Assembly: GCA_018697035.1 (NCBI GenBank)
Contig: JABHSE010000004.1
Coordinates: 131,300 to 195,299 of the forward strand
Length of the DNA stretch: 64,000 nt
Origin: an archaeon
GTDB lineage: Archaea > Nanobdellota > Nanobdellia > Pacearchaeales > GW2011-AR1
Direction: 5' to 3'
The notes beneath the pieces were generated by a model. That model searched no databases and was not told the origin of the DNA. It saw only the letters and a program-made list of their open reading frames with translations. The translations under genes and the position numbers were made by a program. This document shows positions 9,024 to 25,951 of this stretch, one piece after another. Every line of letters starts with the position of its first letter. Within the stretch, counting starts at the first letter, position 1.

Positions 9024-9049
9024 AACAATATTTCAAAACCTCCACCAAT

Positions 9050-11179
9050 TTATGCGAAGACGCCGACAACCAGTTCTTCAAATTTTTCAAGCAATTCTTC
9101 CCACATACCAGCAATACGCTTGTGAATGATCGCATTTAACCGTTTAGTTTCTTTGTCTTTGAACCAATCCTCTGTTCTATCTGACACACGGACTTTATAT
9201 CCGGCTCCTCTACCCCACTGATCCTGCAGCCAGCGCCAAAGGCCTTCATTATCCTTGAGGGATTGTCGGTAAACTTCCTGACCAATCTTTTGGATATCCT
9301 GATACATTCGCTCTGATTCTGAGTCACAAAAGTACATGAGTTCTTTCAAGAATTCTTTTGCTGGCTCCATTCCCTCTTGTGATTCCAAGTTTTTGATCAC
9401 TGAATTTAGCTCACCAAACATTAAGGATATGGTTTTCACTGCTTTTGAACGGGTTCCAAATCCAATATGATAATAATAATCGAGGTTTCCCCAACTTCCT
9501 CTTCTATTCACGCTTGCCCTGACACTTGCGGCATAAGTTCCTCTATTCTGGATTGAACCGATAAGATCATTATGAATGTTTTCAATCTGTTCAATTTCTT
9601 TATGCTGATCTATCCATGCACTAATAGAATTTAGAACAGTCTTGAAAGCATTTTCAGCTATAGCACTTTCAATATTTTCAGCTACTTTATCTATTGTTTC
9701 AGCAACTTCAGCCATACGCCCTTCATGGAAACCCCTTAATTTTTCGATTCTTTTAATCAGGAAATTTCGGGTATCTTTAAAAGTCTCATTTTTTTCATTA
9801 TAAAACCTTACAGGGAGATCGCGCAGATTATAGCGAATAATGTCGGATTGGATTTCATCTGACTTTACCAGATAGCCTTCCTCAGCCTCCTCAACCTCTG
9901 AGCCATCAAGTGTATTGACATCCAAAGCTTCATCGTTCCTGGGGAGAACCAATATTGAAGTTTCTTTTGGCAGCCTATCCTTTATCCCAGATTCAATTGC
10001 TCTTTCAAGTAAGGTTCGGGTAGTCTCATCAGGTGCATCCGAAAAACGAGAGCAAAACACCGTAACTGTCCTGGGGTCATGCAGATGGCGTTCTAAATCC
10101 TCTCTTTTAGCGGTATCATCAACGCCCTTAGTGTCAACTATTTTTATCCCGAACTTGTCATAGCTCAACACTGGTTCGGGAATGTTGATGGTTATTCTTT
10201 TTGGGATGGTAAACTCTTTTTGCAGACCATGGTTTATTTCGAGATATATCTCCCGGAGCCATTGCAGTGCATTCTTATCTATTCCTTTAGGATACCAGAT
10301 TTCAGTTTTTTTCCTTGCTTCAAGGTTCATGTCCATGATCACCCTAATTTTGAAATCATCAGAGATATCATTAGAATTGTTTTCAGCCCTCATCTTTTTG
10401 ACGAGTTCGACGGCCTTGTCTTCTTGTTTATAGCCTTCCTCACTCTTGAACCTTTTAGTAGGTAGATCAGCCATATTACGGATACATCTATCTATTTCCG
10501 AACTCAGCTTGGGGCTCTCGGCATTGGAATCTTTATCAATCTTATGATTTTCTGCTGTTTTGATTAATATGTAATCACAGAAGTCATAGACATCTTTGTA
10601 GACTTCATCTTCTGATAGAGGATCTATAGTTATCCCCCATTCCGGCCCTTTCTGGATTTGCACTTCACAAACAGTGGTACGGCCACCACGTGTGTGTAGA
10701 ACTGGTTTTTTGCCATCTTTCAAGCCGAGGAAACCGCAGATGGCAGTAGTCTTCCCAACACCAACACTTCCAATACAGGCTATCGTATGCTCAGTTGAGG
10801 ACAGGTAATCTGCAAGTTTGCGGGTGGTTTCTTCATGCATTCGCAGTTGCTTGTAGAAGACACTTGTGCTTCCAATACCTTTTTTTAGCTTTTGAATTTT
10901 CTTAAGTGTTGATTCAGCCAACGAAAGCTGTTCTCTGCTTGGATTGAAGAAATCTGGTTTATCTATGTATTTCCATTGTTGTGTAATATGTTTTTTTGCA
11001 GCTTTTGATGTTGGGGTGTTTATTGTATCGAGGAACTTGTCAATCTCTACCTGATCCAGCGATACCTGGTCCTCCATTCTGGAAACCCGGCTCGGGCTAA
11101 AGCCCATCTTTTTTGCTAATTCTTTTTGACTAACCCCTGAATCTTCTCTGACTCGTGCAAGCATTTTTCCTGTTTTCAT
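9050..11179 (-). CDS. XRE-family HTH fused to a dynamin-like/P-loop GTPase domain and a long helical C-terminal region
   Basis: The start is moved to the ATG of MKTGKMLARV (AAAGGAGG RBS). HTH: SGVSQKELAKKMGFSPSRVSRME. G1: GSVGVGKTT. G3-like: IVDTKGVDD. Possible G4: LPRND. Confidence 0.8.
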   Translation of the reverse strand: MKTGKMLARVREDSGVSQKELAKKMGFSPSRVSRMEDQVSLDQVEIDKFLDTINTPTSKAAKKHITQQWKYIDKPDFFNPSREQLSLAESTLKKIQKLKKGIGSTSVFYKQLRMHEETTRKLADYLSSTEHTIACIGSVGVGKTTAICGFLGLKDGKKPVLHTRGGRTTVCEVQIQKGPEWGITIDPLSEDEVYKDVYDFCDYILIKTAENHKIDKDSNAESPKLSSEIDRCIRNMADLPTKRFKSEEGYKQEDKAVELVKKMRAENNSNDISDDFKIRVIMDMNLEARKKTEIWYPKGIDKNALQWLREIYLEINHGLQKEFTIPKRITINIPEPVLSYDKFGIKIVDTKGVDDTAKREDLERHLHDPRTVTVFCSRFSDAPDETTRTLLERAIESGIKDRLPKETSILVLPRNDEALDVNTLDGSEVEEAEEGYLVKSDEIQSDIIRYNLRDLPVRFYNEKNETFKDTRNFLIKRIEKLRGFHEGRMAEVAETIDKVAENIESAIAENAFKTVLNSISAWIDQHKEIEQIENIHNDLIGSIQNRGTYAASVRASVNRRGSWGNLDYYYHIGFGTRSKAVKTISLMFGELNSVIKNLESQEGMEPAKEFLKELMYFCDSESERMYQDIQKIGQEVYRQSLKDNEGLWRWLQDQWGRGAGYKVRVSDRTEDWFKDKETKRLNAIIHKRIAGMWEELLEKFEELVVGVFA

Positions 11180-11532
11180 GACGCCTCCTTTAGAATCGAT
11201 ACAACAAAACAATGCTATTATCTTTGCTTGTAATCTATACTATAGAACATGTATATCTGATGTCAATCACTTTTTTGATTTATTTTTCATGCACTGATTC
11301 ATAATTTTATATGAGTTAATATTGATCTGATTCAAAAAACCACCGCCATGCCGCATTATCAGGCATTATTGTATTTAGGATGCCCTTCTCACCCATATGT
11401 CAGAACACACTTACAAAATCCACCGTTCAACCCACTACCATTATAGAAGGTCTTGATATGGGAGAAATAGTCTCAACCTGAGACCATTATCTTAAAATCA
11501 AGGCTTAACCATTATATAAGGAGGAATTGGAT

Positions 11533-11775
11533 ATGCTGGTACATATTGGCCACAGGAATTATGCAATGGCGGACAAGATCCTGGTGGTGTTAGCATCTGA
11601 AGGATCTGCCGTGCGGCGGTTACGAGCCGAAGGAAAGAAAAAAGGTTGTTTAATAGATGCGACTGCAGGCGGTCGAACCAGGAGCGTGATTGTTGCAACC
11701 TCTGGGCAAGTGATCTTGTCAGGTGTGCAGCCGGAAACACTGTGGAAGCGGATGCGGGCTGTGGTTGGGGGATAA
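11533..11775 (+). CDS. remA: RemA/DUF370-family small DNA-binding regulator
   Basis: LVHIGHRNYAMADKILVVLASEGSAVRRL..KGCLIDATAGGRTRSVIVATSGQVILSGVQPETL matches the RemA pattern (INIGFGN..IVSPESAPIKR..LIDATYGRRTR..ILSAVQPET). GGAGG lies 9 nt upstream of the ATG at 11533. Confidence 0.85.
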   Translation: MLVHIGHRNYAMADKILVVLASEGSAVRRLRAEGKKKGCLIDATAGGRTRSVIVATSGQVILSGVQPETLWKRMRAVVGG

Positions 11776-11782
11776 TAAGCAG

Positions 11783-11816
11783 AAAAGCTCCTTGATATAA
11801 TTACCAAGGAGCTTTT
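11783..11816 (+). terminator. Rho-independent-type terminator after remA
   Basis: A perfect 12-bp stem (aaaagctccttg at 11783-11794 / caaggagctttt at 11805-11816) with a 10-nt loop; the 3' arm ends in TTTT. Confidence 0.7.
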
Positions 11817-12012
11817 ATTCTGGTTTGGTTTATTAAAAATTACTTCTCGATTCTGCCGCCTCCCTCACTGGATCAAGAGAAAGATAGGTCTGGTAGGATT
11901 TTTTTATTATTATAAAAAATAAGCTAGTTGTTGGCAGATTGTATTGAATTTTAAATATCTTCATATTTAATTATAAAAAACTCTTTACTTGGAGAATTAT
12001 ATATGATTATAT

Positions 12013-12069: not shown

Positions 12070-12906
12070 ATGAAATGGGGAATTAAACAAAGGTTAGAGT
12101 TTCTTGAATATCGACTTTTCTGGGAAGGTACAATCAACAGAAAAGATTTAATTGATGTTTTTGGGGTTTCAGTACCTCAAGCATCGGCTGATATTAAACA
12201 ATACAAGCAGAACGCACCAGGTAATATTTATTATGACAAAAGTCAAAAAAAATATTTAGTAACTTCGAAGTTTAAACCGATTTTTGGTTCGATTGATTCT
12301 CACAATTATCTTTCAAAATTATCCATGTTATCTGAAGGCATAATAAAAGAGGATGAAACTTTTATGGGTTACATCCCCGAATATTCAGTTGTTCCTTCAT
12401 TTGACAGGGCTATAGATCCTTATGTTTTGAAAAAAATTATAAAGGTTCTAAAGGCGGGGAATTCAATTAATATTCAATATCAATCAATGAGCAGGCCATC
12501 TCCGGTATGGCGATGGATTTCACCACATGCTTTTGCGTTTGATGGATTCAGATGGCATGTTAGGGCCTATTGTGAGCTTACAAATGAATTTAGGGACTTT
12601 ATTTTAGGGCGTATCCTGGATGTTCAGACGGTCAAAGTTTCCAAGGTGAATTCTTCAGAGGATTCCAAATGGAATCATTTTGTGACATTAAAAATAGCTG
12701 CACATCCTAATTTAACTCCGGGTCAGCGTAAGATAATTGAAAAAGAATATAACATGAGTGATGGAGTTGTTCAGATAAAGGTCAGGGCTGCATTTATTTA
12801 TTATGTGCTGCTTAGGTTTAGGCTTGAAAACAAAGATGATCCAAGATTTTTAAAAAATAAAAATGCAATACTATTGAATTATGAAGAGATTGAAGAGTAT
12901 ATATAA
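12070..12906 (+). CDS. wHTH + WYL-domain transcriptional regulator (BrxR/CapW-like architecture)
   Basis: 278 aa. N-terminal HTH: RKDLIDVFGVSVPQASADIKQYKQ. WYL-type core: RWISPHAFAFDGFRWHVRAYCELTNEFRDFILGRI. Confidence 0.8.
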   Translation: MKWGIKQRLEFLEYRLFWEGTINRKDLIDVFGVSVPQASADIKQYKQNAPGNIYYDKSQKKYLVTSKFKPIFGSIDSHNYLSKLSMLSEGIIKEDETFMGYIPEYSVVPSFDRAIDPYVLKKIIKVLKAGNSINIQYQSMSRPSPVWRWISPHAFAFDGFRWHVRAYCELTNEFRDFILGRILDVQTVKVSKVNSSEDSKWNHFVTLKIAAHPNLTPGQRKIIEKEYNMSDGVVQIKVRAAFIYYVLLRFRLENKDDPRFLKNKNAILLNYEEIEEYI

Positions 12907-12926
12907 CAAATTTAAGGTAAGTGATT

Positions 12927-13859
12927 ATGTATTTTAATTCTAAAAAAGTTGCCTTCTCCCGGCATGAATCTTTTGTTCTTCGTTTTGGCTGGTTAACCAA
13001 AGGGTTTCGTGCTTTCGAAGAAGATCTAAATATTTTTAATAATAAGGATGCTGTTGTCACCTTGGGCGTTGGAAAGAATATGGTCAACTCGATCAGGCAT
13101 TGGCTTCGTGCATCTAAATTAATCATTTTCGATACTGATAAAAAAGAAACTACCTCAATTGGGAAGGCTATTTTTTCAAAAGAAGATGGTTGGGACCCTT
13201 TTTTAGAAGATGAAGCAACTATTTGGTTAATTCACTGGTTGATTTCAACCAATTCAGAGCATGCAACCGCATGGTATTGGTTTTTTAATCATTTCTATAA
13301 ACCTGAGTTTTCAACAGATGAAGTAGTATCTGCACTTTCCACTTTTGCAAAAGAAAAGATTAATGCTCGGTTTGCAATTAGTTCTATTAAGCAGGACGCA
13401 GCTGTTTTATTAAGGTCTTATGTTCGATCAAAGAAAAGCAAAAAAGCAGTTTATGAAGATGTTCTTGATTCTCCATTGTCTCTTTTAAAACTGATTTCGT
13501 ATTCAACTGCAACAAAATCATATCAATCAAAATTAGAAATACGTGAGAACTTACCAATAGGAATATTTGGTTATGCAATTTGTGATTATTTGAAACAGTT
13601 GAACATTTCACAAGTGCCTATCGAAGATTTGATCTATTGCAAAGAGGGAAGGGTTGCTCCTGGGCTTATTTTTCGTTTGACAGAAAATTCTTTGTTAACC
13701 AAATTAGAGCAATTAATACAGCTATTCCCTGAAAAGTTTGCTATAGATCAAACAGCAGGAATTCATCAATTTTTTGTATTAAATGAACTTGATAATCTTG
13801 ATCCTTTTGAAATGTTGAAATTTCATTATGATTCAAAAAACAAATACGAGGCTGCATGA
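12927..13859 (+). CDS. DUF4007-family protein
   Basis: The N-terminus FSRHESFVLRFGWLTKGF matches the RHE(T/S)F..R.GWL.KG signature I recall for DUF4007. The ATG at 12927 is preferred over the GTG at 12921. The stop overlaps the next gene (ATGA). Confidence 0.65.
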   Translation: MYFNSKKVAFSRHESFVLRFGWLTKGFRAFEEDLNIFNNKDAVVTLGVGKNMVNSIRHWLRASKLIIFDTDKKETTSIGKAIFSKEDGWDPFLEDEATIWLIHWLISTNSEHATAWYWFFNHFYKPEFSTDEVVSALSTFAKEKINARFAISSIKQDAAVLLRSYVRSKKSKKAVYEDVLDSPLSLLKLISYSTATKSYQSKLEIRENLPIGIFGYAICDYLKQLNISQVPIEDLIYCKEGRVAPGLIFRLTENSLLTKLEQLIQLFPEKFAIDQTAGIHQFFVLNELDNLDPFEMLKFHYDSKNKYEAA

Positions 13860-16800
13860 AACTAACGGATTATATCGATATTGATACAGTTTACACTCGA
13901 TCAATAAATATAGAGCGTGATTCAGATTCTGATGAGATTGTTAAAGCTTACATTCCAACGAGCCGAGCAGTAAACACTCTGTACCGTATTTCAGACACTT
14001 TTGACCAGGTAAACACACCAAGGTCGTGGGCATTGATTGGGCCTTATGGGTCTGGCAAATCTTCGTTTGCAGTTTTTTTGTCACATTTAATGAATAACAT
14101 TGATAAATCAGCAACGAAATCGGCATACGAAGTATTAAATCGTGTTGATAATGATCTTTGTGGCAAATTCAAGGATCATATTCAAGACACAAAAGGATAT
14201 GTACCAATACTGATCACCGGTGCACCAGAGCCTTTAGGTAACCGTTTCCTTTCAGGGATGTATGATGCCACACAAAAGTATTGGAATACAGTGGGTCGCA
14301 AGCCTTTAGTAATAAATAAGATCAAAGACAAGCTATCTCAAATTACAATTACAACTGCTGAAATTATTGAACTGCTTGAAGAATTGCAGGAAGCTGTCAA
14401 GAAGACCGGCAGTGGTATAATAATTATATTAGATGAATTTGGAAAGTTTTTAGAATATGAAGCAAGGCATTATGGTGCAAATGATATCTATCTTTTACAG
14501 CTTTTATCTGAATTAGCTGTAACTAAAAGCAATGCCAATTTATTCATATTTACATTAATGCATCAGGGCTTTGAAGAATATGCAAGGGGTTTGAGCCGAA
14601 CGCTTAGGAATGAATGGAGCAAGATTCAAGGCCGGTTTGAGACAGTTCCTTTTTTGGAATCTACAGAACAGACTATTCATATCTTGAGCAAAGCTTTTGT
14701 CAATAACTTTTCAGAAGAACAAAAAAATTCAATTTATGAGCTATGTTTAAAGGTTGCAACTGTTTTATCAAAAGAAGATGCTTTACCAGGTTCTATAGAG
14801 CCAAACAAGGCTGCTGATCTATTTGCAAAATGTTATCCTCTTCATCCTGTTTCAACCATATTACTTCCTGTCCTTTGCCAAAAGATGGCTCAAAATGAGA
14901 GGACGTTATTCAGTTATCTTGGGAGCCGGGAATCGTTTGGGTTTAAAGATAGTTTAAGCAAACTCGAATCAACTGATGAATGGATTCTACCCTGGCAGAT
15001 ATATGAGTATTTCATCCAAAATCAACCAGGGGTAATAACTGATCCTATAGCACATCGTCGGTGGGCTGAAGTTGTGACAGCTGTTGAACGGCTTGGTGAT
15101 GCACCTTCAAAAGATATTCAAATGCTTAAAACTATAGGTCTGCTGAATATTATTGGCGCACAAGCGGGGTTTAAGGCATCAAAAAAGATTGTTGAATCAT
15201 GCTCTTCAAACAAGAAAGCTGCAACGATTGCGACAAAAAGCCTTATTGAAAGGTCTGTTGTCCAATTCAGAAAGTTCAGTAATGAATTCAGGGTTTGGCA
15301 GGGTAGTGATTTTGATCTCGAACTGGCAGTGCAAGATGAAATGGGGCAAATTGGACGTTTTGATCTTCCTGAAACCTTAGAGACATTGAATCCATTACAG
15401 CCTATTGTCGCTCATCGTCACACTATCGAAAAGGTGACTTTACGGTACTTTGTTCCATTCTTTGTTGATGTGAACAATTACAAGATGCTCAAACCTAAAG
15501 GTAATCAGCAAAGACTCATTTTTTGTTTAACGGAGACTGCGGATGAAATTGAACTCGCAAAAAATGATGTAATTCCATATTTTGAAGAATTTGACATGAT
15601 TGCAATTTGTTCAAATGGAGATCAATTAAGACAAGCTGTAGGTGAAGTTCTTGCTCTTAAAAGAGTTGAACAAAATTGTCCTGAGTTGAATACTGATCCT
15701 ATAGCGAACAGAGAATTCAAAAATCGCCTTTTTGCTGCTGAAATTTTTCAGGATAACTTATTATCTGCGTTAATAGAATCTCCGCAAATCTCACATTGGT
15801 ATTGGAGAACCAAAAAAATATCAATAAGCAATAAGCGAGGATTACAACAACAGCTATCCACCATTCTTGACTCAATATATTCCAAATCCCCTATAATAAA
15901 GAATGAATTGATCAACAGAGAAAAGCCATCAGCACAAGCAGCAGCAGCCCGAAATAAATTAGTCTTTGCAATGCTGCATAACATCGAAAAGGAAGAATTA
16001 GGCATTGAAAAATTTCCTGCTGAAAAAGGTATTTATAAATCATTTTTACGGGCAACCGGATTACATCAATTAAATGGGGACAATAACTGGGAACTTGTTC
16101 CACCTAAGAAAAATAATCCTTACAATTTATATCCAGTCTGGATGTGCATACAAGATTTTTTAGAAACGACTCAAAAGACACCAAAATCTTTCATTGAGCT
16201 TAATGAAATTCTTCTTGCCCCTCCGTATGGGGTTAAAGCAGGCGTTCTACCTTTACTATATTTAACTGTTTTTTTATGTAAACAAAATGATCTGGCTTTT
16301 TATGAAAATGGCATTTATACGCCATATATTACTGATCAGCATATAGAAAGGTTCATGAAACGGCCTGATTTTTTTACAATACAATTATTAAAAATTAGTG
16401 GTATTAGAGCATCTTTATTTAACAGTTACTCAAAGGTTCTTTATGGTGATAATCCGAACCGAAAAATTAATTTATTGAGCATAGCACGGCCTCTTGCAAA
16501 GTTTGTTGCAGAATTAGAAGAGTATACTAAGCAAACGAATAGATTGTCGGATTCAAGCCAGAAGGCTTTGAAGGCATTTGATTTAGCAAATTCTCCAGCT
16601 GATCTCTTATTCAATAGATTACCAAAAGCTTGTTCATTTCCTGAAATTGATCCTGATGAGACAAATAAAAATAAGATCAAGGGTTTTACGAATGCTTTAA
16701 TTAGCGTTATCAAAGAATTACGTGACGCTTACACAAAAATGCTTGAGGAGTTCGCAGGATTGCTCTCGTATTCGTTATTGCCGGATTATAATGAAAAGTT

Positions 16801-17335
16801 AGAGTTGTCTAAGTTGCGATCCAAAATCCAAGCAAGATATGAAGGATTAGAAAACTTTACAGTAGACTCGGCAGGATTGAGGCCATTTGTTGTGCAGATA
16901 ACAGAAAAAGAAGCTGATGATAAGGTCTGGTTCAGCAGACTCTTATTGTTTCTTGGGGAAAAAACATCAAACAAATGGTCTGATATAGACAGGGATAATG
17001 CAGTTCTTAGACTAACTGGATTCTCTAAAAGGCTTATCGACCTAAGGATTATACAAGGTCATTTCATCAAAAACAAAGCGAAGTTCAAGGATTCTTTTGA
17101 AATTATTCGGTTAAGGTCAATGCGTTACGGTAAGACTGATAATGATGAAGTCATTACAATAGAACACTCTGAGAAAGAATATATCGATAATCAAAAAGAA
17201 CATTTTTATTCTCTACTATCACAATTGAACAGCGATAAATCACGCATTGCAATTTTAGCTGATATTCTTGATGAGTATTTGACTGAAAAAAAACAGAAGA
17301 GTGATAGCGAGAAAAACAAGGTATCAAATGGCTAA
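13856..17335 (+). CDS. Large (1159 aa) P-loop NTPase
   Basis: Walker A: LIGPYGSGKSSF. Walker B: IIIILDEFGKFLEY. The long helical remainder has no family recognised with confidence. Confidence 0.85.
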   Translation: MKLTDYIDIDTVYTRSINIERDSDSDEIVKAYIPTSRAVNTLYRISDTFDQVNTPRSWALIGPYGSGKSSFAVFLSHLMNNIDKSATKSAYEVLNRVDNDLCGKFKDHIQDTKGYVPILITGAPEPLGNRFLSGMYDATQKYWNTVGRKPLVINKIKDKLSQITITTAEIIELLEELQEAVKKTGSGIIIILDEFGKFLEYEARHYGANDIYLLQLLSELAVTKSNANLFIFTLMHQGFEEYARGLSRTLRNEWSKIQGRFETVPFLESTEQTIHILSKAFVNNFSEEQKNSIYELCLKVATVLSKEDALPGSIEPNKAADLFAKCYPLHPVSTILLPVLCQKMAQNERTLFSYLGSRESFGFKDSLSKLESTDEWILPWQIYEYFIQNQPGVITDPIAHRRWAEVVTAVERLGDAPSKDIQMLKTIGLLNIIGAQAGFKASKKIVESCSSNKKAATIATKSLIERSVVQFRKFSNEFRVWQGSDFDLELAVQDEMGQIGRFDLPETLETLNPLQPIVAHRHTIEKVTLRYFVPFFVDVNNYKMLKPKGNQQRLIFCLTETADEIELAKNDVIPYFEEFDMIAICSNGDQLRQAVGEVLALKRVEQNCPELNTDPIANREFKNRLFAAEIFQDNLLSALIESPQISHWYWRTKKISISNKRGLQQQLSTILDSIYSKSPIIKNELINREKPSAQAAAARNKLVFAMLHNIEKEELGIEKFPAEKGIYKSFLRATGLHQLNGDNNWELVPPKKNNPYNLYPVWMCIQDFLETTQKTPKSFIELNEILLAPPYGVKAGVLPLLYLTVFLCKQNDLAFYENGIYTPYITDQHIERFMKRPDFFTIQLLKISGIRASLFNSYSKVLYGDNPNRKINLLSIARPLAKFVAELEEYTKQTNRLSDSSQKALKAFDLANSPADLLFNRLPKACSFPEIDPDETNKNKIKGFTNALISVIKELRDAYTKMLEEFAGLLSYSLLPDYNEKLELSKLRSKIQARYEGLENFTVDSAGLRPFVVQITEKEADDKVWFSRLLLFLGEKTSNKWSDIDRDNAVLRLTGFSKRLIDLRIIQGHFIKNKAKFKDSFEIIRLRSMRYGKTDNDEVITIEHSEKEYIDNQKEHFYSLLSQLNSDKSRIAILADILDEYLTEKKQKSDSEKNKVSNG

Positions 17336-18119
17336 GAAAAATATCCGGCATGTTTGTGGGATCTCTGGTGGTAAAGATAGTGCTGCTTTGGCAATTTATC
17401 TGAAGCAACAGGGGAAATATCCTGATATGGAGTATTATTTCTCTGATACTGGGTGTGAGCTTCCTGAGACATATTTATTCCTGGATAAGCTTGAAGCTTA
17501 TCTTGGGAAAAAAATTGTTCGCCTGGGAAGTGAATCAACATTTGAGCATCATCTTTTCATGAGTGGAAACATGTTGCCCTCACCCCGGCAGAGATGGTGC
17601 ACAGTTAAAATGAAACTGGAGCCCTTTGAGAAGTTTGCGGGAACAAAGGAAGATGTTAAAAGTTTTATAGCTATTCGTGGAGATGAACATAGAGAAGGAT
17701 ATGTTAGTTCTAAGCCTAATATAAAACCGGAGTTTCCATTCGTTCATGATGGTATTGTCAGAAAAGATGTCTTTCGAATTTTAGAAGAAACTATTGGAGT
17801 CCCGAAATATTACAAATGGAGAAGCAGATCTGGATGTTATTTTTGTTTTTTCCAAAGACGTGAAGAGTGGCTTGGACTTTATGATCATCACCCTGATCTT
17901 TTCAAAAAAGCAATGGAACTTGAAAAAGTTGATGCTAATGAAAATGGTTACACTTGGATTGAGGGGATGACATTAAAAGAGTTATTGGAAAAAAAAGATT
18001 CAATCATCGAATACGCAGAAAACAGACGTAAGAACAACGACAATAGGACCTGGCAAGAGAAACTTCTTGAACAGGGTGATGATATGAATGACAAAGGGTG
18101 TTTAATTTGTAGTCTTTAA
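17328..18119 (+). CDS. PAPS-reductase/DndC-like PP-loop ATP pyrophosphatase family protein
   Basis: PP-loop ISGGKDSAALAIYL, then RQRWCTVKMK, with C-terminal cysteines (CYFCFF, GCLICS). The ATG at 17328 overlaps the upstream stop by 8 nt. Confidence 0.85.
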   Translation: MAKKNIRHVCGISGGKDSAALAIYLKQQGKYPDMEYYFSDTGCELPETYLFLDKLEAYLGKKIVRLGSESTFEHHLFMSGNMLPSPRQRWCTVKMKLEPFEKFAGTKEDVKSFIAIRGDEHREGYVSSKPNIKPEFPFVHDGIVRKDVFRILEETIGVPKYYKWRSRSGCYFCFFQRREEWLGLYDHHPDLFKKAMELEKVDANENGYTWIEGMTLKELLEKKDSIIEYAENRRKNNDNRTWQEKLLEQGDDMNDKGCLICSL

Positions 18120-18134
18120 ATTTTGGAGGTTGTG

Positions 18135-19817
18135 ATGAGTGTTAGTTTGGTGGAAAACGGTGCTGCCCTTCAATCAATGCGTAATTCTGATTTTGATGCA
18201 TATAGTGCCTACGGTGAAATAATTGATAACTCGATACAAGCAGATGCTAAAATTATTAGAGTTCATTTTGATTATGTACCTGCAACAACTAAACGTGATA
18301 AAGAAGGCCTCAAATATGTTGCGTTTGGTGATGATGGGGAGGGGATGGAACCTGATGTCCTTCATCGTTGTTTGCAATTAGGATATTCAAGTCGTTACAA
18401 TGATCGTTCAGGTATAGGTCGATTTGGTGTAGGAGGTATCTTAGCTGCAATCAATCAGTGCATGAAAATTGAAATGTATTCAAAAGTCGAAACCGGCGAT
18501 TGGTTGTATACTTATGTCGATTTAGGACAAATTATGAAAGGTGAGATGTCTCACATTCCAGAGCCTATCGTTCAAACACCTCCAGATGAATTTTTAAAGT
18601 TTTCGAATCCAGAACATGGAACTATTGCAATCTGGTCTAAGTATGATCGTCAACCAACAAATGCTTCAGAGATTGTATATGGAATGCATATTTGGACAGG
18701 TCGAACTTATAGATATTTTCTTTGGGAAGATACCAAAATAGTTATCAATGACAAAGATGTGTTAGCCATTGATCCGCTTTATTGCTGTGTCGAAAAAACA
18801 AAGCATCCTGAAACAGCTCCTGCTAATCTTTATGATCCAATAGAAATTTCATGGCCTATTGCTGAGGATGATAGGATTGATGGAGGACCTTCCGATTCTG
18901 AAATAACTATAAAGATGAGCTTATTGCCAGAAGAATTACGCCCTAATCGAGGTGCAGGAAATTCAAATAATGCTAAAGATAGATATATTGATAAAAATGA
19001 AGGTTTTTCAATTATCAGAAATAAAAGAGAAGTTTTTTTTGGGCGAATCCCATATTGGCCGGGAAAACCGATTCAAGAAATCGATAGATGGTGGGGGTGT
19101 GAAATATCTTTTGATGCTGTTTTAGATAAAGAGTTCACTGTTAAGAACATTAAAAGAGGTGCTGTCCCGGTTAAAGAATTAAAAAAAGCTTTAAAAGATA
19201 AAATTGAACCAACTAGAAACACCTGTCTTGGAAAAGTAAGAGAACATTGGGATGAGAATAAGGCAAAGTCAAAAATAAATGATAAAGACAATACAACTGA
19301 GACTGGTCATGAGAAAGCTGAAAAGGCTGCCCAAAAGACTAAAACTCCTAAGAATATAATTGATAAAAAGAAAAATATTAATGAAGAGGCTGAGAAAGTA
19401 TCTAACCAGTGGGCTGAACATGCTGACGAGCAACAAAGAAGGCGATGGGAAGAGAAATTTAAAAGCCAGCCTTTTTCTCTTCTTGATGATGAGTGGAAAG
19501 GCCCTGAGTTCTTCGAGACCACACATATGGGTGGCAGTAGTGTTTTAAAATATAATAAGCGACATGATTTTTTCAGAAAAATTGATGAAATAAGGGTATT
19601 ATTGCATGAAAAAAATGATGATAATGATGATGATGCTGCTGAACAATTGAAGGATTTGATTGATCTTCTATTAATCTCATATGCAAAAGCTGAGGCTATG
19701 TTTGATGATGAATTCGAAATGTCAGCTGAAAAATTTATCGAACAAATAAGGATGTCATGGGGCAACTATTTATCGAACTATATTGGAACATATGAAAAAC
19801 AAAATCAAACGGAATAA
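18135..19817 (+). CDS. GHKL (Bergerat-fold, MORC/HATPase_c_3-like) ATPase
   Basis: N-box: YGEIIDNSIQADAK. G1: FGDDGEGM. G2: GRFGVGG. GGAGG RBS before the ATG at 18135. The C-terminal ~110 aa are homologous to the C-terminus of the next gene product. Confidence 0.8.
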   Translation: MSVSLVENGAALQSMRNSDFDAYSAYGEIIDNSIQADAKIIRVHFDYVPATTKRDKEGLKYVAFGDDGEGMEPDVLHRCLQLGYSSRYNDRSGIGRFGVGGILAAINQCMKIEMYSKVETGDWLYTYVDLGQIMKGEMSHIPEPIVQTPPDEFLKFSNPEHGTIAIWSKYDRQPTNASEIVYGMHIWTGRTYRYFLWEDTKIVINDKDVLAIDPLYCCVEKTKHPETAPANLYDPIEISWPIAEDDRIDGGPSDSEITIKMSLLPEELRPNRGAGNSNNAKDRYIDKNEGFSIIRNKREVFFGRIPYWPGKPIQEIDRWWGCEISFDAVLDKEFTVKNIKRGAVPVKELKKALKDKIEPTRNTCLGKVREHWDENKAKSKINDKDNTTETGHEKAEKAAQKTKTPKNIIDKKKNINEEAEKVSNQWAEHADEQQRRRWEEKFKSQPFSLLDDEWKGPEFFETTHMGGSSVLKYNKRHDFFRKIDEIRVLLHEKNDDNDDDAAEQLKDLIDLLLISYAKAEAMFDDEFEMSAEKFIEQIRMSWGNYLSNYIGTYEKQNQTE

Positions 19818-19823
19818 TTTGGG

Positions 19824-20447
19824 ATGAAAACGAACTCTGAAAAACAAGTCGTTATGGGAAATAAAAAATACCCTATTGTTATTTCTTTAAGTGAATACAA
19901 AGGATCTCCATTGGTAGATATCCGAAAGTACTATTTCGATAAAAAATCAGAGGAGATCAAACCAAGTAAAAAAGGTATAGCACTCCAAAAAAACAGTTTC
20001 AATTTGTTGGCGCAAACACTTATTGATTCATCGCCAGAGATAAAAAAATGGTTTGAAGAAAAAAATGAGTATAGTGCCAAGAAAGCAACTCAGACTCTTC
20101 AGGTAAGAGCAGATGCTGTTGAAGAGAATAGACGTCAAGCACAAAACTTTGAAACTGATAAAGAAGGGTGGCAGGCTCCTAATTTTTTTGATGTGGAATC
20201 ATTAGGGGGTTCAGATAAGATTGTATATAACACAAAGCATAGTATGTATGAGTTGTTGAATCAGTTGTCTCAGGGTGATGATAAATCAGCCTCCGACCTT
20301 ATTAATGTCATCCTAATGTCTTATAAAAAAGCAAAAGATATTTTGGATGATGGTGAAGAATATTCTGCTGATGAGTTGTTCAAGTATTTAGAATTTGAAT
20401 GGGGGTTGATACTTTCAAATTACATTAAAACGGTAGGTAAAATATGA
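19824..20447 (+). CDS. PC4/YdbC-like ssDNA-binding domain protein with a C-terminal domain shared with the GHKL ATPase
   Basis: The N-terminus KYPIVISLSEYKGSPLVDIRKYYFDKKSEEIKPSKKGIALQ resembles the p15/PC4 fold signature. The C-terminus aligns with 18135-19817 (see findings). Confidence 0.6.
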   Translation: MKTNSEKQVVMGNKKYPIVISLSEYKGSPLVDIRKYYFDKKSEEIKPSKKGIALQKNSFNLLAQTLIDSSPEIKKWFEEKNEYSAKKATQTLQVRADAVEENRRQAQNFETDKEGWQAPNFFDVESLGGSDKIVYNTKHSMYELLNQLSQGDDKSASDLINVILMSYKKAKDILDDGEEYSADELFKYLEFEWGLILSNYIKTVGKI

Positions 20448-22078
20448 GTGTCTGGAAGTTTTTGGGCAAGTCAGACTTGCAAAAATATTTAGAGGATGAG
20501 CTTTTAGAGCGGTTAGAAGACTTGCTACCCATCTTTGATCCTAACATTGATGGATTCACTATACATTCTAAAAATACTTTAGCAAAAATATTTGAGTCTT
20601 TTATAGCTCCACGCCTTTTCTCTAAAAAAGAATTTCGTGCTCAATTGCTAAATTCTTTTCCAGAATCTAATTTAGATGATATCTGTATTTTGTTAGAAAT
20701 AAAGATAACTGGCCTAAGCTTCGATAAAAAAGTAAAGGCACTTTGCAAAATTCCATGGAAAGAATCTAAAAGGGTTGATCAGTTCTTAGAAGCATTGAAT
20801 TTACCTCTTGATTTCGGTCCTTCTGAAAAGCAATTGCCCGAGAAAGAAAAAATAATTTCATTAGATATAAAAAGGTATCTGACTTTAAAAGATTTTCAAG
20901 CATCTGTTTTCTATAAAGTAGTAGATGAATTAAAAAATCCAAGGGCCAGATTTATCGTCCAAATGCCAACTGGTTCAGGTAAAACAAGAACGGCAATGGA
21001 AATTATTTCATCTGTATTGAACGATAATGAAGAAAAAAGCATTGTTATATGGTTGGCACATTCAGAAGAACTTTGTGAGCAGGCTTATCAATGTTTTGAA
21101 GATACTTGGTATCATACCAAAAATAAGGATTTAAAATTAATTAGATCGTGGGGGGAAGGTGGAAGTTTACCTCAAGATGCTGACCAGAGTTGTATGATCA
21201 TAGGAGGCTTTCAGAAGCTTTATGCCATATTAAAAAAAGACCCTTCATATTTCGATAAATTACGTAGTCATGTTAAATTAATTGTTGTTGATGAAGCTCA
21301 TAAAGTTTTAGCTCCAACATACAAAAAAGTTACTGATTCTTTAATTGGCGATGATACTTGCATGATAGGTTTAACTGCAACGCCAGGCAGGAGTATAATT
21401 GATGAGGATCAAAATAAAGATCTCGCTAATTATTTTTTTCAAAAGATTATCAATATAGATACTGGCAAAGAACCTGTCATTAAATATCTAAGAGACAGGA
21501 AAATATTAGCCCGAACAAATTACCATCCAATTAAAACAAACCGAACTTATGAACTTACCAAGAAAGAACAAGAACATTTAGAGAAATTCTTCGACTTGCC
21601 TAAAGGCATCTTAAAAAGAATCGGTGCTGATGATGCAAGAAATATTGAAATCATAAAAATTTTACAGGATGATTGTGCTTTGAATAAGCAAATTTTATTT
21701 TTTGCTTGCAGTGTAGAGCATTCACAATTCATTACTGCATTGCTTAACATGCTTGGAATAAAGGCTGCCCATGTTGATGGAGAACTTCCTAAAGGAAGAA
21801 GGGCTGCAATAATTAATGAATTCAGAGAGAATAAAATTCAGGTTTTATGTAACTATGGTGTTTTGTCTACTGGTTTTGATGCTCCTAAAATCGATGTAGT
21901 ATTCATATCTCGACCTACTGGTTCAGTAGTTTTGTACAGTCAAATGATAGGCCGGGGACTCAGAGGTCCATCAATAGGCGGTACAGAAGAATGCAAAATT
22001 GTTGATTTGATTGATAATATTACCGGTTTTGGGAATGAAGATAAAGTCTATGAATATTTTGATGAATATTATTCGTAA
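20444..22078 (+). CDS. Superfamily-2 DEAH helicase (type III restriction Res-like)
   Basis: Motif I: QMPTGSGKT. Motif II: VVDEAHK. Motif III: LTATPGR. Motif VI: QMIGRGLRG. The start overlaps the upstream stop (ATGA). Confidence 0.85.
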   Translation: MSVWKFLGKSDLQKYLEDELLERLEDLLPIFDPNIDGFTIHSKNTLAKIFESFIAPRLFSKKEFRAQLLNSFPESNLDDICILLEIKITGLSFDKKVKALCKIPWKESKRVDQFLEALNLPLDFGPSEKQLPEKEKIISLDIKRYLTLKDFQASVFYKVVDELKNPRARFIVQMPTGSGKTRTAMEIISSVLNDNEEKSIVIWLAHSEELCEQAYQCFEDTWYHTKNKDLKLIRSWGEGGSLPQDADQSCMIIGGFQKLYAILKKDPSYFDKLRSHVKLIVVDEAHKVLAPTYKKVTDSLIGDDTCMIGLTATPGRSIIDEDQNKDLANYFFQKIINIDTGKEPVIKYLRDRKILARTNYHPIKTNRTYELTKKEQEHLEKFFDLPKGILKRIGADDARNIEIIKILQDDCALNKQILFFACSVEHSQFITALLNMLGIKAAHVDGELPKGRRAAIINEFRENKIQVLCNYGVLSTGFDAPKIDVVFISRPTGSVVLYSQMIGRGLRGPSIGGTEECKIVDLIDNITGFGNEDKVYEYFDEYYS

Positions 22079-22093
22079 TCCGACATTCTAAAA

Positions 22094-23053
22094 GTGATAA
22101 AAATGAATGGACTTCTTAAATCAATAATTTTTAATAAAGACTTTAACGATTCAATTCAAGAATCTTTATCTTCAGCATCTTACGTTTATATTTTTAGTGC
22201 ATTTGTCAAAACAGATGCATTAAAGTGGGTTGCAAATAATATTGGTGAAAATACACAAGTAAAAGTTATAGCTCGCTGGCAATTTAATGATTTAATTTCT
22301 GGGGCTTCAGATATTACCGCTTACAAATTCGCTAACCAGAATAATTGGGATTTTGCTATCAATACTAATATGCATTTCAAAATTTATTTGATTGATGAAA
22401 AAAAATTATATGTTGGTAGTGCGAATTTAACTAATTCTGGATTTCATTTAAGTGGTTTTGGGAATGATGAAGCAAGTGTTCAAGTAGTTCCAAGCTCAAT
22501 CGATATAATGCAATTAAGAAGGTATGCAGATTCATGCTGTATTATAACAGATGATCTTTATGAGAAGTTAATTGAATATTATAATAAAAGAGATAAACAG
22601 CAAATCAATCTAAAAAAAGATTGGCCTTCAGATTTAAAGAACAAAATTATAACAACACTTGATCAGCTTTGGGTTCATGACTTGTTTTTTAATTCACCTC
22701 AATCTTTAGAATCTGCTGAAGGTGAGCATCTTAGTCATGATCGTGCTTTATTGAATGTACAAGGAATTAATTTAAAACAAAAAGATGATTTACTAAATAG
22801 ATTCAAATCCACATTATTATGGGACTGGGTATATAGAACTGTTGGTAATAGCGAAGATAAGTATGTGAGGTTTGGAGAAATTACAGCTAAACTTCACAAT
22901 TCTTTATTAGATGATCCAAAGCCCTACAGGAAAACTGTAAAGAGTTTTGTCTCCAACATATTTGAATGGGTTCGATACTTAGACCCAGACGAAATAGGTA
23001 TTAAAAAGTTCAATCATACAGAAGCATTATTCTTAATCGAACAACAGGAATAA
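22094..23053 (+). CDS. Phospholipase-D-family (single HKD, Nuc-like) nuclease
   Basis: HFKIYLIDEKKLYVGSANLTNSG is an exact HxK(x)4D(x)6GSxN motif. The start is either the GTG at 22094 or the ATG at 22103. Confidence 0.8.
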   Translation: MIKMNGLLKSIIFNKDFNDSIQESLSSASYVYIFSAFVKTDALKWVANNIGENTQVKVIARWQFNDLISGASDITAYKFANQNNWDFAINTNMHFKIYLIDEKKLYVGSANLTNSGFHLSGFGNDEASVQVVPSSIDIMQLRRYADSCCIITDDLYEKLIEYYNKRDKQQINLKKDWPSDLKNKIITTLDQLWVHDLFFNSPQSLESAEGEHLSHDRALLNVQGINLKQKDDLLNRFKSTLLWDWVYRTVGNSEDKYVRFGEITAKLHNSLLDDPKPYRKTVKSFVSNIFEWVRYLDPDEIGIKKFNHTEALFLIEQQE

Positions 23054-23058
23054 TATAA

Positions 23059-23943
23059 ATGGATCTTCCAGGAAACTATTTAAAAAATGTCAGTGAAGGT
23101 ATGGACGTTGAGGTTAATCCTCAGAAAGATAGGACAAGAAAAAAGCGTGTAAAAGGAGTTGTGAAAAAAATTCTGAGCAGGACTCCTGAACACACACATG
23201 GAATTCTTGTTGAATTAGACAACGGTGAAATAGGCCGTATAAAAACAATACTGGATTTTTCATCAGGTTCTGTGAATGATCCCTCTTCCAAGGCTTCAAA
23301 TACTGTTGATGTCAAACCTCCAGATACTGAAGAGATCCATTCAAGTGACGAGTCTGTTAGCCAAAGCAAAACAAAGCCGAAATTCGATATCGAAAAGACT
23401 ATTGAAAATCCAAAAGAAGAGAATCACTTTGTTGAATTTAAAACGAGCAGCTTATGGAGTGTACGGTATAGCGATCAACAGATCCGGGAGTCATCCTCAT
23501 ATGAAATAAAAGAATATGGTCGCAATGCTTCAAAATTTATCATTGCAAAGACCATAGGAAGCTTTCTGAATTCTGATGGTGGACACTTAATTGTTGGTGT
23601 AAAAGAGAACAAAATCGGGGGAAATAATGAAGTCATTGGAATAGAATCCGAATTTTTCAAGCTTCAAGATCCTTGCCTTGACGGATACAGGAGAATGATA
23701 GTTGACCAGATCATTAAGTTATTTTTCCCGGCTGAAGTTTTCCATCATATCAATGATTATATGGAAATAAACTTTAAAGAAATTGATGAAAAAACTGTTT
23801 GTCACATCCTGGTTCGCCCAAGTAAAACGAAAGTTTTCATCAATTTTAAAAATAAGGGACATTTTTTCATTAGGATTGATGCAAGCTCAAGAGAATTACG
23901 TGGAGAAGATGTTGTTGATTATTGTCTTCGTAGATTTACTTGA
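23059..23943 (+). CDS. YwbE/DUF2196-like N-terminal domain fused to a Schlafen/AlbA_2-type DNA-binding domain
   Basis: The N-terminus GMDVEVNPQKDRTRKKRVKGVVKKILSRTPEHTHGILVELDNGEIGRI resembles B. subtilis YwbE. The C-terminus ENHFVEFKTSS..IAKTIGSFLNSDGGHLIVGV is typical of AlbA_2. Confidence 0.65.
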   Translation: MDLPGNYLKNVSEGMDVEVNPQKDRTRKKRVKGVVKKILSRTPEHTHGILVELDNGEIGRIKTILDFSSGSVNDPSSKASNTVDVKPPDTEEIHSSDESVSQSKTKPKFDIEKTIENPKEENHFVEFKTSSLWSVRYSDQQIRESSSYEIKEYGRNASKFIIAKTIGSFLNSDGGHLIVGVKENKIGGNNEVIGIESEFFKLQDPCLDGYRRMIVDQIIKLFFPAEVFHHINDYMEINFKEIDEKTVCHILVRPSKTKVFINFKNKGHFFIRIDASSRELRGEDVVDYCLRRFT

Positions 23944-23947
23944 GTAG

Positions 23948-25951
23948 CTAAGTCTCAATGTCAAAGCCTTTTATCAATATACCCTTATCTGCAATTCCTT
24001 CATCGAACTCATCGATGTTTGGCCCAAATCCGCTTAGATCAAGCCATTCAAAAGAAGAGAGTTGGACATCAAAAGAACGCTGATCCTTATATTTAGGGAA
24101 GCCGTCCTCAATATATTGAGATTTTAGATACAGCGGCTGCGGCTTGAATTTATCTCCATAGGTAAAAAAATCGATTCGTTGCTCTCTTAGATTGATTTTG
24201 ATCCTTTCCATGAGAAGAGGCAAAGGCTTATTTTCAAAATCATCATATTTCATCAGAGAAACTTTATTTGATTGCATATGGATTTTAATCATATCAACTT
24301 CATACAAATCACCATAGAGCTGTGTGGCACAACCGATATACGTTCTTAAAACTGGTGAGAGTTGGTTGATGTAATCTATATGAATGGTCCAGGAGTGATC
24401 ACCATCCATACGGCCAGTTTTAAGGTTTTCATCGGCTTTTTGGCATTCTGATTTAATCGTTTGAGTATTCCCTACTGAAAAAAGCAGGTCTGTGGATTCT
24501 TGGATGGTATCTGTATACTTGTTAAAAAAATGCTTAATATCTTTTTGAAGCACTCTCGGCATTGTTTTGTATGGCTTTCTCCGACTAAAAAGACCAAGGG
24601 CAAAGTGAACAAGAAGGTCTTTTCTTCTTTCAGATTCTGCCAGCTGAAAATTTAATTTGTCATAAATTTCCGTAGCAAGTGTGAATGCTTTTTGATGAGA
24701 CCCGCAGGTAGCCCGGAGTTCTTCTGATCTTTTATATTCTGAATTTAAAGGGAGGCGACCAAATTCTAAGCAAGTGTTCCAAAAGTCATTCAACAGATCT
24801 TTATGCCTTGTGTAAAATGCCTGTTGCTTGATTTTTAACCTATCCGGAGAATCTGTATAAGATATCCTTTTCCAGTTCTTTCTTCTTCCCTGCCGATTTA
24901 TTAGAAGCTGTTGTTCTTCAATTTTATCTTTAAAAATATAGAATACGCCAGGGCCGACCGCTATTGCTAATTCACCTAAAGATCCTTCAAGATATTCCCG
25001 AAACTCATTCTGCGTATAATATTTTTGAAAGGTGTTTCTTGAGGTTATAACTCCATCACCATATTGCTTGAACTTGCTTGTTATAGATTCACTGCCTAGC
25101 ATGACAGAAGCTACAAGAAATTTCTTTGAGAGAGTGTAAGCTTTTTTTAGAGTCTGGGTTCTTTCACTGGGAGATTCAATAATATTGATGACAAAGCCCA
25201 AATTTACAATATCAGCCTTTACGATTTTTGAATCACTTCGATAAACAGGGTCCCAACCGGATGCATTCACACCCAATTCATTTACAATATTAAGATCATC
25301 ACATTTGCCGCAACCATAGTCAAAAAAGGTATAATTTCCATTCAGATAATTATTCCTGTAAAGGGATTGTACCGGCGTTGAAAGGCTGTATCTATCAATT
25401 GCAGTCTTATGCCTCTCTATTCCATTATCAAAAACCCTTTTTTTAACAATTTCATGACCGATGATAGAAAGGCCTTTTTCTTTAAGGATTTCTTCCCATC
25501 TGTTTTTAAATCCTATGATACGCTTATTCTCAAACAGACCTTCATTTTCAGCCTGGGTTGTTAATTTCTTATAGTCAGGGATTAAAGGATTTGAAGGTTC
25601 TAATAATGTCTCTTTGCGATGCAGAATGGGCGGATTTTTTGAATTTGTATATTGAATCTTTTTACATGTTAAATTTTCCAGATCAATTGAATGGCTGCTT
25701 TTTAAAGATGGAAATGCAGCTGTGTAAAATTCAGGGTAATTTAATAATGAAATTTTGAATTCTCTTTTAAAGAATTTAATAAGGTTCCAGGTGATTGATT
25801 CAAATCCAAGTTCAATAACTTGTGATTCAAGGAAGTTTTTTAAGGGTAATGGCAAGCATTTCACGGCTGATTCATGTAGATAAATAGCATCAGGTAGATG
25901 TTTGCCTATTTTGATTTTTTTTATTGTTTTTAAATAATTTGGTTTATTCAT
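23948..25951 (-). CDS. SAM-dependent methyltransferase of the 'DNA phosphorothioation-associated putative methyltransferase' type
   Basis: 667 aa with SAM motif I FFDYGCGKCDDL..GWDP. The overall layout matches my recollection of the Dnd-related methyltransferase family. It is convergent with the nine-gene operon, separated by a 4-nt gap. Confidence 0.6.
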   Translation of the reverse strand: MNKPNYLKTIKKIKIGKHLPDAIYLHESAVKCLPLPLKNFLESQVIELGFESITWNLIKFFKREFKISLLNYPEFYTAAFPSLKSSHSIDLENLTCKKIQYTNSKNPPILHRKETLLEPSNPLIPDYKKLTTQAENEGLFENKRIIGFKNRWEEILKEKGLSIIGHEIVKKRVFDNGIERHKTAIDRYSLSTPVQSLYRNNYLNGNYTFFDYGCGKCDDLNIVNELGVNASGWDPVYRSDSKIVKADIVNLGFVINIIESPSERTQTLKKAYTLSKKFLVASVMLGSESITSKFKQYGDGVITSRNTFQKYYTQNEFREYLEGSLGELAIAVGPGVFYIFKDKIEEQQLLINRQGRRKNWKRISYTDSPDRLKIKQQAFYTRHKDLLNDFWNTCLEFGRLPLNSEYKRSEELRATCGSHQKAFTLATEIYDKLNFQLAESERRKDLLVHFALGLFSRRKPYKTMPRVLQKDIKHFFNKYTDTIQESTDLLFSVGNTQTIKSECQKADENLKTGRMDGDHSWTIHIDYINQLSPVLRTYIGCATQLYGDLYEVDMIKIHMQSNKVSLMKYDDFENKPLPLLMERIKINLREQRIDFFTYGDKFKPQPLYLKSQYIEDGFPKYKDQRSFDVQLSSFEWLDLSGFGPNIDEFDEGIADKGILIKGFDIET

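Follow-up and report, generated by a model that had tools for sequence, protein, structure and literature searches.

Single-strand phosphorothioate (PT) marks are installed in DNA by SspBCD together with a cysteine desulfurase (PMC8092258, PMC12914056), and Ssp systems combine this PT writer with an adjacent, swappable effector (Xiong 2020; Wang 2021, PMC8092258). SspE and SspFGH are the only Ssp effectors named in papers up to 2025-26, including PMC8092258 and PMC12914056; in Wang et al. 2021, 84% of sspBCD clusters had neither of the two, and more restriction partners were predicted (PMC8092258). Many dnd clusters, too, are not coupled to DndFGH (PMC10853773). Prokaryotic MORC operons, for their part, were predicted to be restriction-modification (R-M)-like systems involving DNA looping (PMC2292703). 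Here we describe a 64,000-nucleotide (nt) stretch of DNA from an archaeon of the Pacearchaeales (contig JABHSE010000004.1; the whole stretch is called the window), in which a nine-gene operon joins the same SspB, SspC and SspD to genes for a MORC-like GHKL ATPase, a PC4-like protein, a superfamily 2 (SF2) helicase and a PLD-family nuclease. We consider it likely that this locus is a PT-based defence system of the R-M type, with two modules in one operon, in which the GHKL/helicase/PLD set is probably a new restriction partner of the PT mark. As judged by profile comparison, the writer is already known (Ssp) and the frame of the effector was anticipated (PbeA/SauUSI, MORC operons), and it is the effector module itself that appears to be new. 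The genes of the operon and its convergent neighbor are as follows (lengths in amino acids, aa).

12070..12906, plus strand: BrxR-family WYL transcriptional regulator, 278 aa (gene 1; Pfam WYL, E 1.3e-10)
12921..13859, plus strand: SspB (DUF4007), predicted DNA-binding/target-recognition subunit of the Ssp writer (Pfam, PADLOC)
13856..17335, plus strand: SspC, 1159-aa BrxC-like P-loop ATPase of the Ssp writer (PADLOC, Walker A/B motifs)
17328..18119, plus strand: SspD, predicted PP-loop (PAPS-reductase-like) sulfurtransferase of the Ssp writer (PADLOC, Pfam PAPS_reduct)
18135..19817, plus strand: MORC-like GHKL ATPase with GHKL and S5 transducer domains, a long helix and a C-terminal helical domain (Pfam, AlphaFold, Foldseek)
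19824..20447, plus strand: PC4-like protein, predicted to bind single-stranded DNA, 207 aa (Pfam PC4)
20444..22078, plus strand: predicted SF2 DEAH helicase/translocase, ResIII and Helicase_C (Pfam)
22103..23053, plus strand: predicted PLD-family nuclease with a single HKD motif (Pfam PLDc_2 and PLDc, AlphaFold, Foldseek)
23059..23943, plus strand: YwbE (DUF2196) and AlbA_2 (Schlafen-type) protein (Pfam)
23948..25951, minus strand: TIGR04096 'DNA phosphorothioation-associated putative methyltransferase', 667 aa, convergent (NCBIfam)

All nine plus-strand open reading frames (ORFs) of 12070-23943 were found at these coordinates. With the ATG starts of the public calls for the identical locus, the junctions run +14 nt (BrxR to SspB), -4 nt (SspB/SspC, an ATGA overlap at 13856), -8 nt (SspC/SspD, sspD ATG at 17328), +15 nt (SspD to GHKL; +3 nt if TTG at 18123 is the start), +6 nt (GHKL to PC4), -4 nt (PC4/helicase, an ATGA overlap at 20444), +24 nt (helicase to PLD; +15 nt if GTG at 22094 is the start) and +5 nt (PLD to AlbA_2). 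This agrees with the co-directional genes and overlaps read from the letters in the initial annotation, and every domain call made there was likewise reproduced by Pfam. At least 23 contigs show identical gene order; they stem from different marine samples, among them one from Saanich Inlet (200 m), and include an ENA contig of 546 kb. The tight co-directional packing kept on all of these is therefore no chance arrangement.

Genes 2-4 are, by their profile matches, full-length SspB, SspC and SspD, the named writer of single-strand DNA phosphorothioation. SspB matches Pfam DUF4007 over its full length (E 7e-82) and the PADLOC SspB model at positions 2-294 of 295 (E 6.6e-90, 299 bits). SspC covers positions 1-1062 of 1064 of its PADLOC model (E 0, 1372 bits; 455 bits for the BrxC model), with intact Walker A (GPYGSGKS) and Walker B (IIILDE) motifs, and SspD matches its model over the full length (E 5e-98, 326 bits; 25-31 bits for the DndC and BrxP models), carrying SGGKDS at residue 13 and a Pfam PAPS_reduct match. 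At 299, 1372 and 326 bits these genes contradict the earlier statement that the window holds no sspABCD genes. The initial annotation had also likened the triad to PbeA/B/C, an identity that we rejected, since PADLOC gives SspBCD and PbeA is a fused PLD-helicase; the likeness to Pbe therefore falls on genes 7 and 8 and not on the triad.

The protein encoded directly after SspD is MORC-like with a GHKL + S5 module, as judged from its predicted structure. It matches Pfam HATPase_c_3 (E 1e-16), its motifs EIIDNS, DDGEG and GRFGVG are intact, and the Bergerat motifs are invariant among 15 homologues, a profile of which gave MORC3 and MORC4 as top matches among PDB sequences. The AlphaFold model is confident at residues 1-385, and its best Foldseek matches are MORC2, MORC4 and MORC3 (E 1e-13 to 1e-11) over approximately 420-500 alignment columns that include the GHKL and S5 domains; the MzaB profile reached only 34-41 bits. 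About 794 clusters at 50% identity (E <= 1e-30) make up the family, and the identical protein is found in NCBI as HN903_02620. The PC4-like protein matches Pfam PC4 (E 8e-13) and PC4/p15 in the PDB (E 7e-7), and its residues 85-206 are homologous to the GHKL C-terminus (32% identity, E 2e-19, BLASTP), a domain of about 120 aa whose presence in both proteins suggests a role in docking or oligomerisation.

The helicase shows the Pfam domains ResIII (E 6.5e-28) and Helicase_C (E 2e-16) with intact GSGKT, DEAH, TAT and QMIGRGLR motifs, behind an N-terminal stretch of about 140 aa without annotation. It partly matches PADLOC PbeA (positions 247-467 of 672, E 2.6e-27) and resembles RadD, type I R subunits and TIGR04095 dnd_restrict_1, all below family thresholds in NCBIfam. 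In the PLD protein the motif is intact (HFKIYLID followed by GSAN), and H94, K96, G108, S109 and N111 are invariant across 25 homologues, which gives one HKD motif; single-HKD proteins such as Nuc and BfiI must dimerise to form one active site. Its AlphaFold model (predicted local distance difference test, pLDDT, 87) has Foldseek matches to Nuc, NucT, Zucchini, SauUSI and NgoAVII, and its last ~90 residues show winged-helix-like secondary structure in the model and an invariant PKPYRK. A profile of this C-terminal domain, a candidate sulfur-binding domain, found no relative in PDB sequences or Pfam in a sequence-level search. With these catalytic motifs and folds, the putative effector looks active as a MORC-type ATPase, an SF2 translocase and a PLD nuclease.

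PADLOC-DB v2 and NCBIfam place none of the proteins of genes 5-9 in a named family and assign the complete set to no system, in line with the initial annotation, which had recognised none. We found no description of a GHKL/PC4/helicase/PLD module in the literature, most subscription-journal papers being outside coverage, and re-analyses of Dnd and BREX neighborhoods (including PMC10853773) make no mention of GHKL or MORC proteins. SspE consists of DUF262 and DUF1524/HNH, whereas the putative effector of the window is made of GHKL, PC4, SF2 helicase and PLD proteins instead; none of the nine proteins matches PADLOC SspE or Pfam GmrSD_N/C, with the same tool that did find SspE at a related locus (L050, see below). 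SspFGH comprises a Walker-A SspF, SspG, and SspH with an FtsK/SpoIIIE-like C-terminus (PMC8092258), and the window set differs from it in profiles and domain description, with no FtsK/HerA-like domain in genes 5-9 and no PADLOC match. The PbeABCD or CxC-ABC-ATPase-DndE system (Xiong 2019, PMC6459918; re-annotated in PMC10853773) also links a PLD (HKD) nuclease and a ResIII-type SF2 helicase to PT, and on the sequence evidence the helicase and PLD pair of the window corresponds to its fused PLD-helicase PbeA. However, PbeA is one polypeptide with the PLD part N-terminal, whereas the window has separate genes in opposite order; the partner in Pbe is the ABC ATPase PbeC and not a MORC-like GHKL protein, and PADLOC found no match to PbeB, PbeC or PbeD (DndE-like) among the window proteins.

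The MORC/paraMORC operons (Iyer, Abhiman & Aravind 2008, PMC2292703) likewise place a GHKL + S5 ATPase together with a nuclease, occasionally an HKD one, and an SF2 helicase (Rad25/ResIII-like). They were tied to cytosine or adenine methylases, whereas the partner here is a PT writer and the sole methyltransferase-like gene is that of TIGR04096; the PC4 adaptor and the domain common to GHKL and PC4 proteins are features of the window locus that the 2008 description does not include. SauUSI and type I/III enzymes also couple a PLD-family nuclease to an SF2 translocase, and the nuclease domain of SauUSI aligns structurally with the PLD model (E 3e-6, root-mean-square deviation 3.5 A), but SauUSI is a single chain, dependent on modified cytosine, with no GHKL partner and no PT link. 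For DISARM, the PLD protein scored 22 bits against a DrmC cutoff of 133 (NCBIfam) and PADLOC gave no DrmA or DrmB match; for Mza, the GHKL protein scored 41 bits against an MzaB cutoff of 850, with no equivalents of MzaA/C/D/E; and for BREX type 4, the Ssp models far outscore BrxC (455 bits) and BrxP (27-31 bits), with no PglZ or Lon-like protein among the scanned ORFs. On profile scores and domain content we rejected an assignment of genes 5-9 to SspE, SspFGH, DndFGH, DndI, DISARM, Mza or BREX type 4.

The association of the module with PT writers was examined in 43 genomic loci encoding GHKL homologues (numbered with the prefix L), the content of their 10-kb flanks being determined by tblastn and unbiased ORF clustering. 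The helicase was found in 28-29 and the PLD gene in 26 of the 43, and the linkage count was based on the 26 genomic loci that have GHKL, helicase and usable flanks. PT genes lie within 10 kb of the module in 25 of these 26, in six out of six metagenomic loci and in the one plasmid locus (pSC52_2), which answers the concern of the initial annotation that the two modules might be accidental neighbors: their pairing is conserved. SspB/C/D accompany the module in 20 of the 26 genomic loci, dndB-C-D-E with dndA in L009, L027 and L031, and DndD with a desulfurase in L024. Since sspBCD occurs in only about 3% of genomes (sspBCD and dndCD in ~3-4%; PMC12914056), chance adjacency is negligible. The writer stands upstream on the same strand, downstream or convergent to the module, varying by locus, in Clostridia, Planctomycetota, Bacteroidota, Verrucomicrobiota, Proteobacteria, Thaumarchaeota and others, and vertical inheritance of one arrangement therefore cannot explain the linkage. 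The module was not seen beside ordinary methyltransferase R-M genes in the surveyed genomic, metagenomic and plasmid loci; in some loci it also neighbors SspE, SBD-HNH, SIR2 and GmrSD-type defence genes, and copies were located in an integrative and conjugative element (L052), on a plasmid (H1) and in islands. Mirror-tree comparison gave r = 0.82 for GHKL against helicase (27 loci) and weaker co-divergence of GHKL with PLD (0.36) and with SspC and SspB (0.51 and 0.34, p <= 0.0025). Together with the value for SspD given below, this pattern fits a cohesive effector module that is in part co-inherited with the writers and in part shuffled among them.

In three loci the flanking genes differ from both Ssp and Dnd (L048 14572-21618; L049 14484-21542; L002 16108-18994, flanking genes and first members only). 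They comprise a gene for a sulfur-binding domain (SBD) of the ScoMcrA type with HNH, a protein of ~616-650 aa (PADLOC PDC-M33A; weak HATPase_c_3), proteins of 287 aa (matching PDC-M33B) and 284 aa, a PP-loop protein of 423 aa similar to the N-terminus of SspD, and a cysteine desulfurase. By these likenesses the genes possibly form a third sulfur-insertion set. L002 was considered as a PT-free counter-example and rejected as such, Pfam showing the same layout as in L048 and L049. A paralogous subtype of the module in the order helicase-GHKL-PLD, with 27-38% identity to the window proteins, adjoins SspBCD in L057, L061, L076 and L112, and both subtypes stand in tandem in L017 (4438-8578).

Considering the known PT effectors, in which translocation by DndFGH is repressed by PT and the NTPases of DndI and SspE are stimulated by PT, with dissociation of the protein from DNA, a working scheme for the locus can be outlined. 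SspB-SspC-SspD would write single-strand PT, with a cysteine desulfurase (SspA/IscS) encoded at another place in the genome. Using ATP, the helicase and the MORC-type clamp would load on DNA and scan it, and the MORC-type dimer may clamp or loop DNA, after the proposal for prokaryotic MORC operons (PMC2292703). A PLD dimer would nick or cut DNA that lacks the host PT pattern, whereas host PT marks would alter the activity of one of the ATPases and thereby make the complex stall or dissociate, a behavior shown for DndFGH, DndI and SspE. PC4 could keep the complex on unwound or single-stranded intermediates, and the BrxR-type WYL regulator would set expression in this lineage. What we infer for the module is that its proteins form a complex, act on DNA as a nuclease, sense PT and protect against phage. 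Candidate PT readers are the PKPYRK domain of PLD, the domain common to GHKL and PC4 and the helicase N-terminus. The composite modification-and-restriction system envisaged in the initial annotation is borne out in part, as a conserved pairing of a marking half with a GHKL/helicase/PLD half, its restriction activity being predicted. Beyond the window, we lean somewhat towards the view that the module is a widespread restriction set specific to phosphorothioated genomes, able to plug into any PT writer (Ssp, Dnd or the third set).

Several observations weigh against a PT-based R-M-type system. No Aminotran_5 protein, as expected for SspA, was present among the scanned ORFs of the window, and PT writing here therefore depends on an unlinked desulfurase; an Aminotran_5 gene is present in 15 related loci. 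An SspA or IscS encoded outside the cluster is accepted in the literature (PMC8092258, PMC12914056), the desulfurase of the V. anguillarum FF-93 Ssp system likewise lying outside the operon (PMC8092258), and the missing SspA therefore does not exclude Ssp membership. No canonical sulfur-binding domain (PF26340) and no DUF262 of the SspE/DndI type were found with Pfam and PADLOC in the window proteins scanned. At one locus (L018) there is no PT gene in 10 kb on one side, and the contig ends just after the module. GHKL and SspD showed no correlation in the mirror-tree comparison (r = 0.04), and tight co-evolution of the two was rejected. Moreover, in a reverse sample of 80 metagenomic SspD loci, biased to SspDs resembling module-adjacent ones, a GHKL homologue was found in 7 of the 43 loci (16%) with at least 4 kb of flank, and SspE in 1 of these 43, both lower bounds as many flanks are short; with a share of about 16%, SspBCD does not need the module.

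An SspE-like or abortive mode of action, in which PT activates the module or infection triggers suicidal cleavage of host DNA, is in our view unlikely. SspE does need PT to stimulate its NTPase and nickase, and the Aravind group proposed a suicide option for the HKD-SF2 effectors of PT-linked systems. L050, in which GHKL-PC4-helicase stands with SspE (612 bits) and no PLD gene, points in the same direction, its composition suggesting that the ATPase parts can feed other nucleases. Regulators of the WYL/BrxR type (BrxR/CapW family) typically hold such systems in check, which we count for activation or suicide as well. However, PT activation and PT inhibition look alike at the level of sequence, and the translocase and PLD set is closest to SauUSI and the R subunits of type I/III enzymes, as the proposed restriction of DNA without host PT would have it.

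Two independent systems side by side in a defence island, an orphan SspBCD and a PT-free MORC/helicase/PLD nuclease that is modification-independent or type IV-like, we hold to be improbable. The region indeed looks like a mobile and defence island (integrases; HerA-like, HSDR_N, Fic, RadC and DUF3150 genes), a standalone role often decoupled from dndABCDE has been proposed for DndFGH (PMC10853773), and the ~16% share among sampled SspD loci and the missing co-divergence of GHKL with SspD would also suit this explanation. It is at odds with the position of 25 of 26, 6 of 6 and 1 of 1 loci within 10 kb of PT or PT-like writers of three types, with an sspD-GHKL junction of 3-15 nt that leaves no terminator-like gap, and with the co-divergence of GHKL with SspC and SspB. 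A role outside defence, in which PT DNA would be processed or maintained in a mismatch-repair-like manner by nicks or turnover at PT sites, is very improbable: the set of MutL/MORC-type GHKL, helicase, ssDNA (single-stranded DNA) binder and nuclease parallels mismatch-repair excision by analogy (PMC2292703) and accompanies three unrelated writers, as generic PT-DNA processing would, but most SspBCD and Dnd clusters work without the module, its patchy and mobile distribution is typical of defence genes, restriction modules that pair PLD with an SF2 helicase are established (SauUSI, PbeA), and it co-occurs with the SspE, SBD-HNH, SIR2 and GmrSD-type genes mentioned above. A PT-based system of two modules remains our preferred reading of the locus.

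The conserved core of the module is GHKL, helicase and PLD. In this respect the nine-gene unit of the initial annotation was overstated as a conserved unit, all nine genes being present but the PC4 gene occurring in about half of the related loci and the WYL and YwbE-AlbA_2 genes being lineage-specific or occasional accessories. The identical regulator protein carries precomputed Pfam WHD_BrxR, WYL and BrxR_CTD domains, and homologues were found in 1 of 80 SspD loci and in none of the 43 GHKL loci. Of the GHKL loci, only L016, L018 and L024 encode homologues of the YwbE-AlbA_2 protein (SLFN_AlbA_2, E 5e-14; DUF2196, E 6e-14), each directly after the PLD gene. Two unrelated loci (L050 7693-9828 and L018 5170-7437) have a gene for a Schlafen group-3 helicase (PF09848) directly upstream of the GHKL module, which together with the AlbA_2 accessory hints at a recurrent Schlafen-related association with the module.

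The convergent TIGR04096 gene (NCBIfam E 1.5e-190, 634 bits; cutoff 150) lies just beyond the end of the operon as given in the initial annotation (23943) and is probably an accessory of the same PT gene pool. Its homologues adjoin the module in L001, L012, L016 and L025, and it lies near SspD in 10 of the 43 loci with at least 4 kb of flank, compared with 7 for GHKL and 1 for SspE; L057, L061, L068, L078, L107, L115 and L121 are among the sampled loci with such genes. As read from the sequence, the protein has a SAM (S-adenosylmethionine) motif of the small-molecule type (FDYGCGKCDD) and no recognised DNA-methylase motif, its ~350 C-terminal residues are without annotation, and it has no Pfam, PADLOC or PDB match. 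An ORF of 118 aa (26001-26357, minus strand), 50 nt upstream of the TIGR04096 gene, encodes the N-terminal piece of a different GHKL ATPase (HATPase_c_3, E 9e-15) with N, G1 and G2 boxes; it breaks off directly behind the G2 box, none of the frames continuing it, and looks like a truncated remnant, yet it is kept on all sampled copies of the locus. A role as partner of TIGR04096 was rejected, the fragment being truncated after G2 and absent beside TIGR04096 homologues elsewhere.

The operon is embedded in a region (3769-49583) that looks like a large mobile/defence island. The other features annotated here and just beyond are the following.

3769-4872 and 26896-27549: tyrosine integrases
32801-34111: radical SAM gene
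34600-36792: HerA-like ATPase
40915-41451: RadC
42199-43686: AAA ATPase
44374-45255: DUF3150
47555-48571: HSDR_N
49509-49583: tRNA-Glu
49779-50939: Fic

Upstream of brxR, a small RemA-like ORF (11533-11775, plus strand; PF04025, E 1e-21) is directly followed by a 20-nt inverted repeat with 85% complementarity (11778-11821), and a TTTATA element lies about 25 nt ahead of the brxR ATG, a distance that would fit leaderless transcription in an archaeon. Divergent upstream genes (8559-11212, minus strand) encode a GIY-YIG protein of 154 aa and a 720-aa protein whose only match is to HTH_3/HTH_31 at its N-terminus; PADLOC matches neither, and they might be another defence or regulatory pair. Downstream, a 692-aa ORF (28181-30259, plus strand) without Pfam or PADLOC match lies in a stretch that stands out by a GC content of 0.42 and a GC skew of +0.38, with long ORFs overlapping on the opposite strand. 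An Rfam tRNA spanning 172 nt (52174-52345, plus strand; model positions 1-71), missed by ARAGORN, probably contains an intron, consistent with an archaeal host. In addition, an 848-aa UvrB homologue (55913-58459, minus strand) has a Ser_hydrolase domain (PF06821, residues 459-605) inserted between the helicase lobes; it is followed by uvrC (58503-60065) and uvrA (61448-63922) in a region of strongly negative GC skew (-0.5).

Defence finders do not flag the genes of the module, and genomes that carry it are therefore annotated with 'orphan' Ssp or Dnd modification; on plasmid pSC52_2, three of the four module genes are annotated as 'hypothetical protein' and the fourth as 'DEAD/DEAH box helicase'. 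If our reading is true, the module, present at about one sixth of the sampled SspD loci and at Dnd clusters, would explain part of the gap left by the missing partners of PT writers, and it would constitute a third major class of PT-dependent effectors next to DndFGH/SspFGH and the SspE/DndI type. The module would further offer a tractable system for the reading of backbone sulfur without a known sulfur-binding domain. Finally, among prokaryotic MORC-type ATPases its GHKL protein would be the first with a tie to a defined epigenetic mark and, given that MORC-type ATPases are epigenetic silencers in eukaryotes, such a link to PT in prokaryotes would support the 2008 proposal that MORC proteins originated in R-M-like conflict systems.

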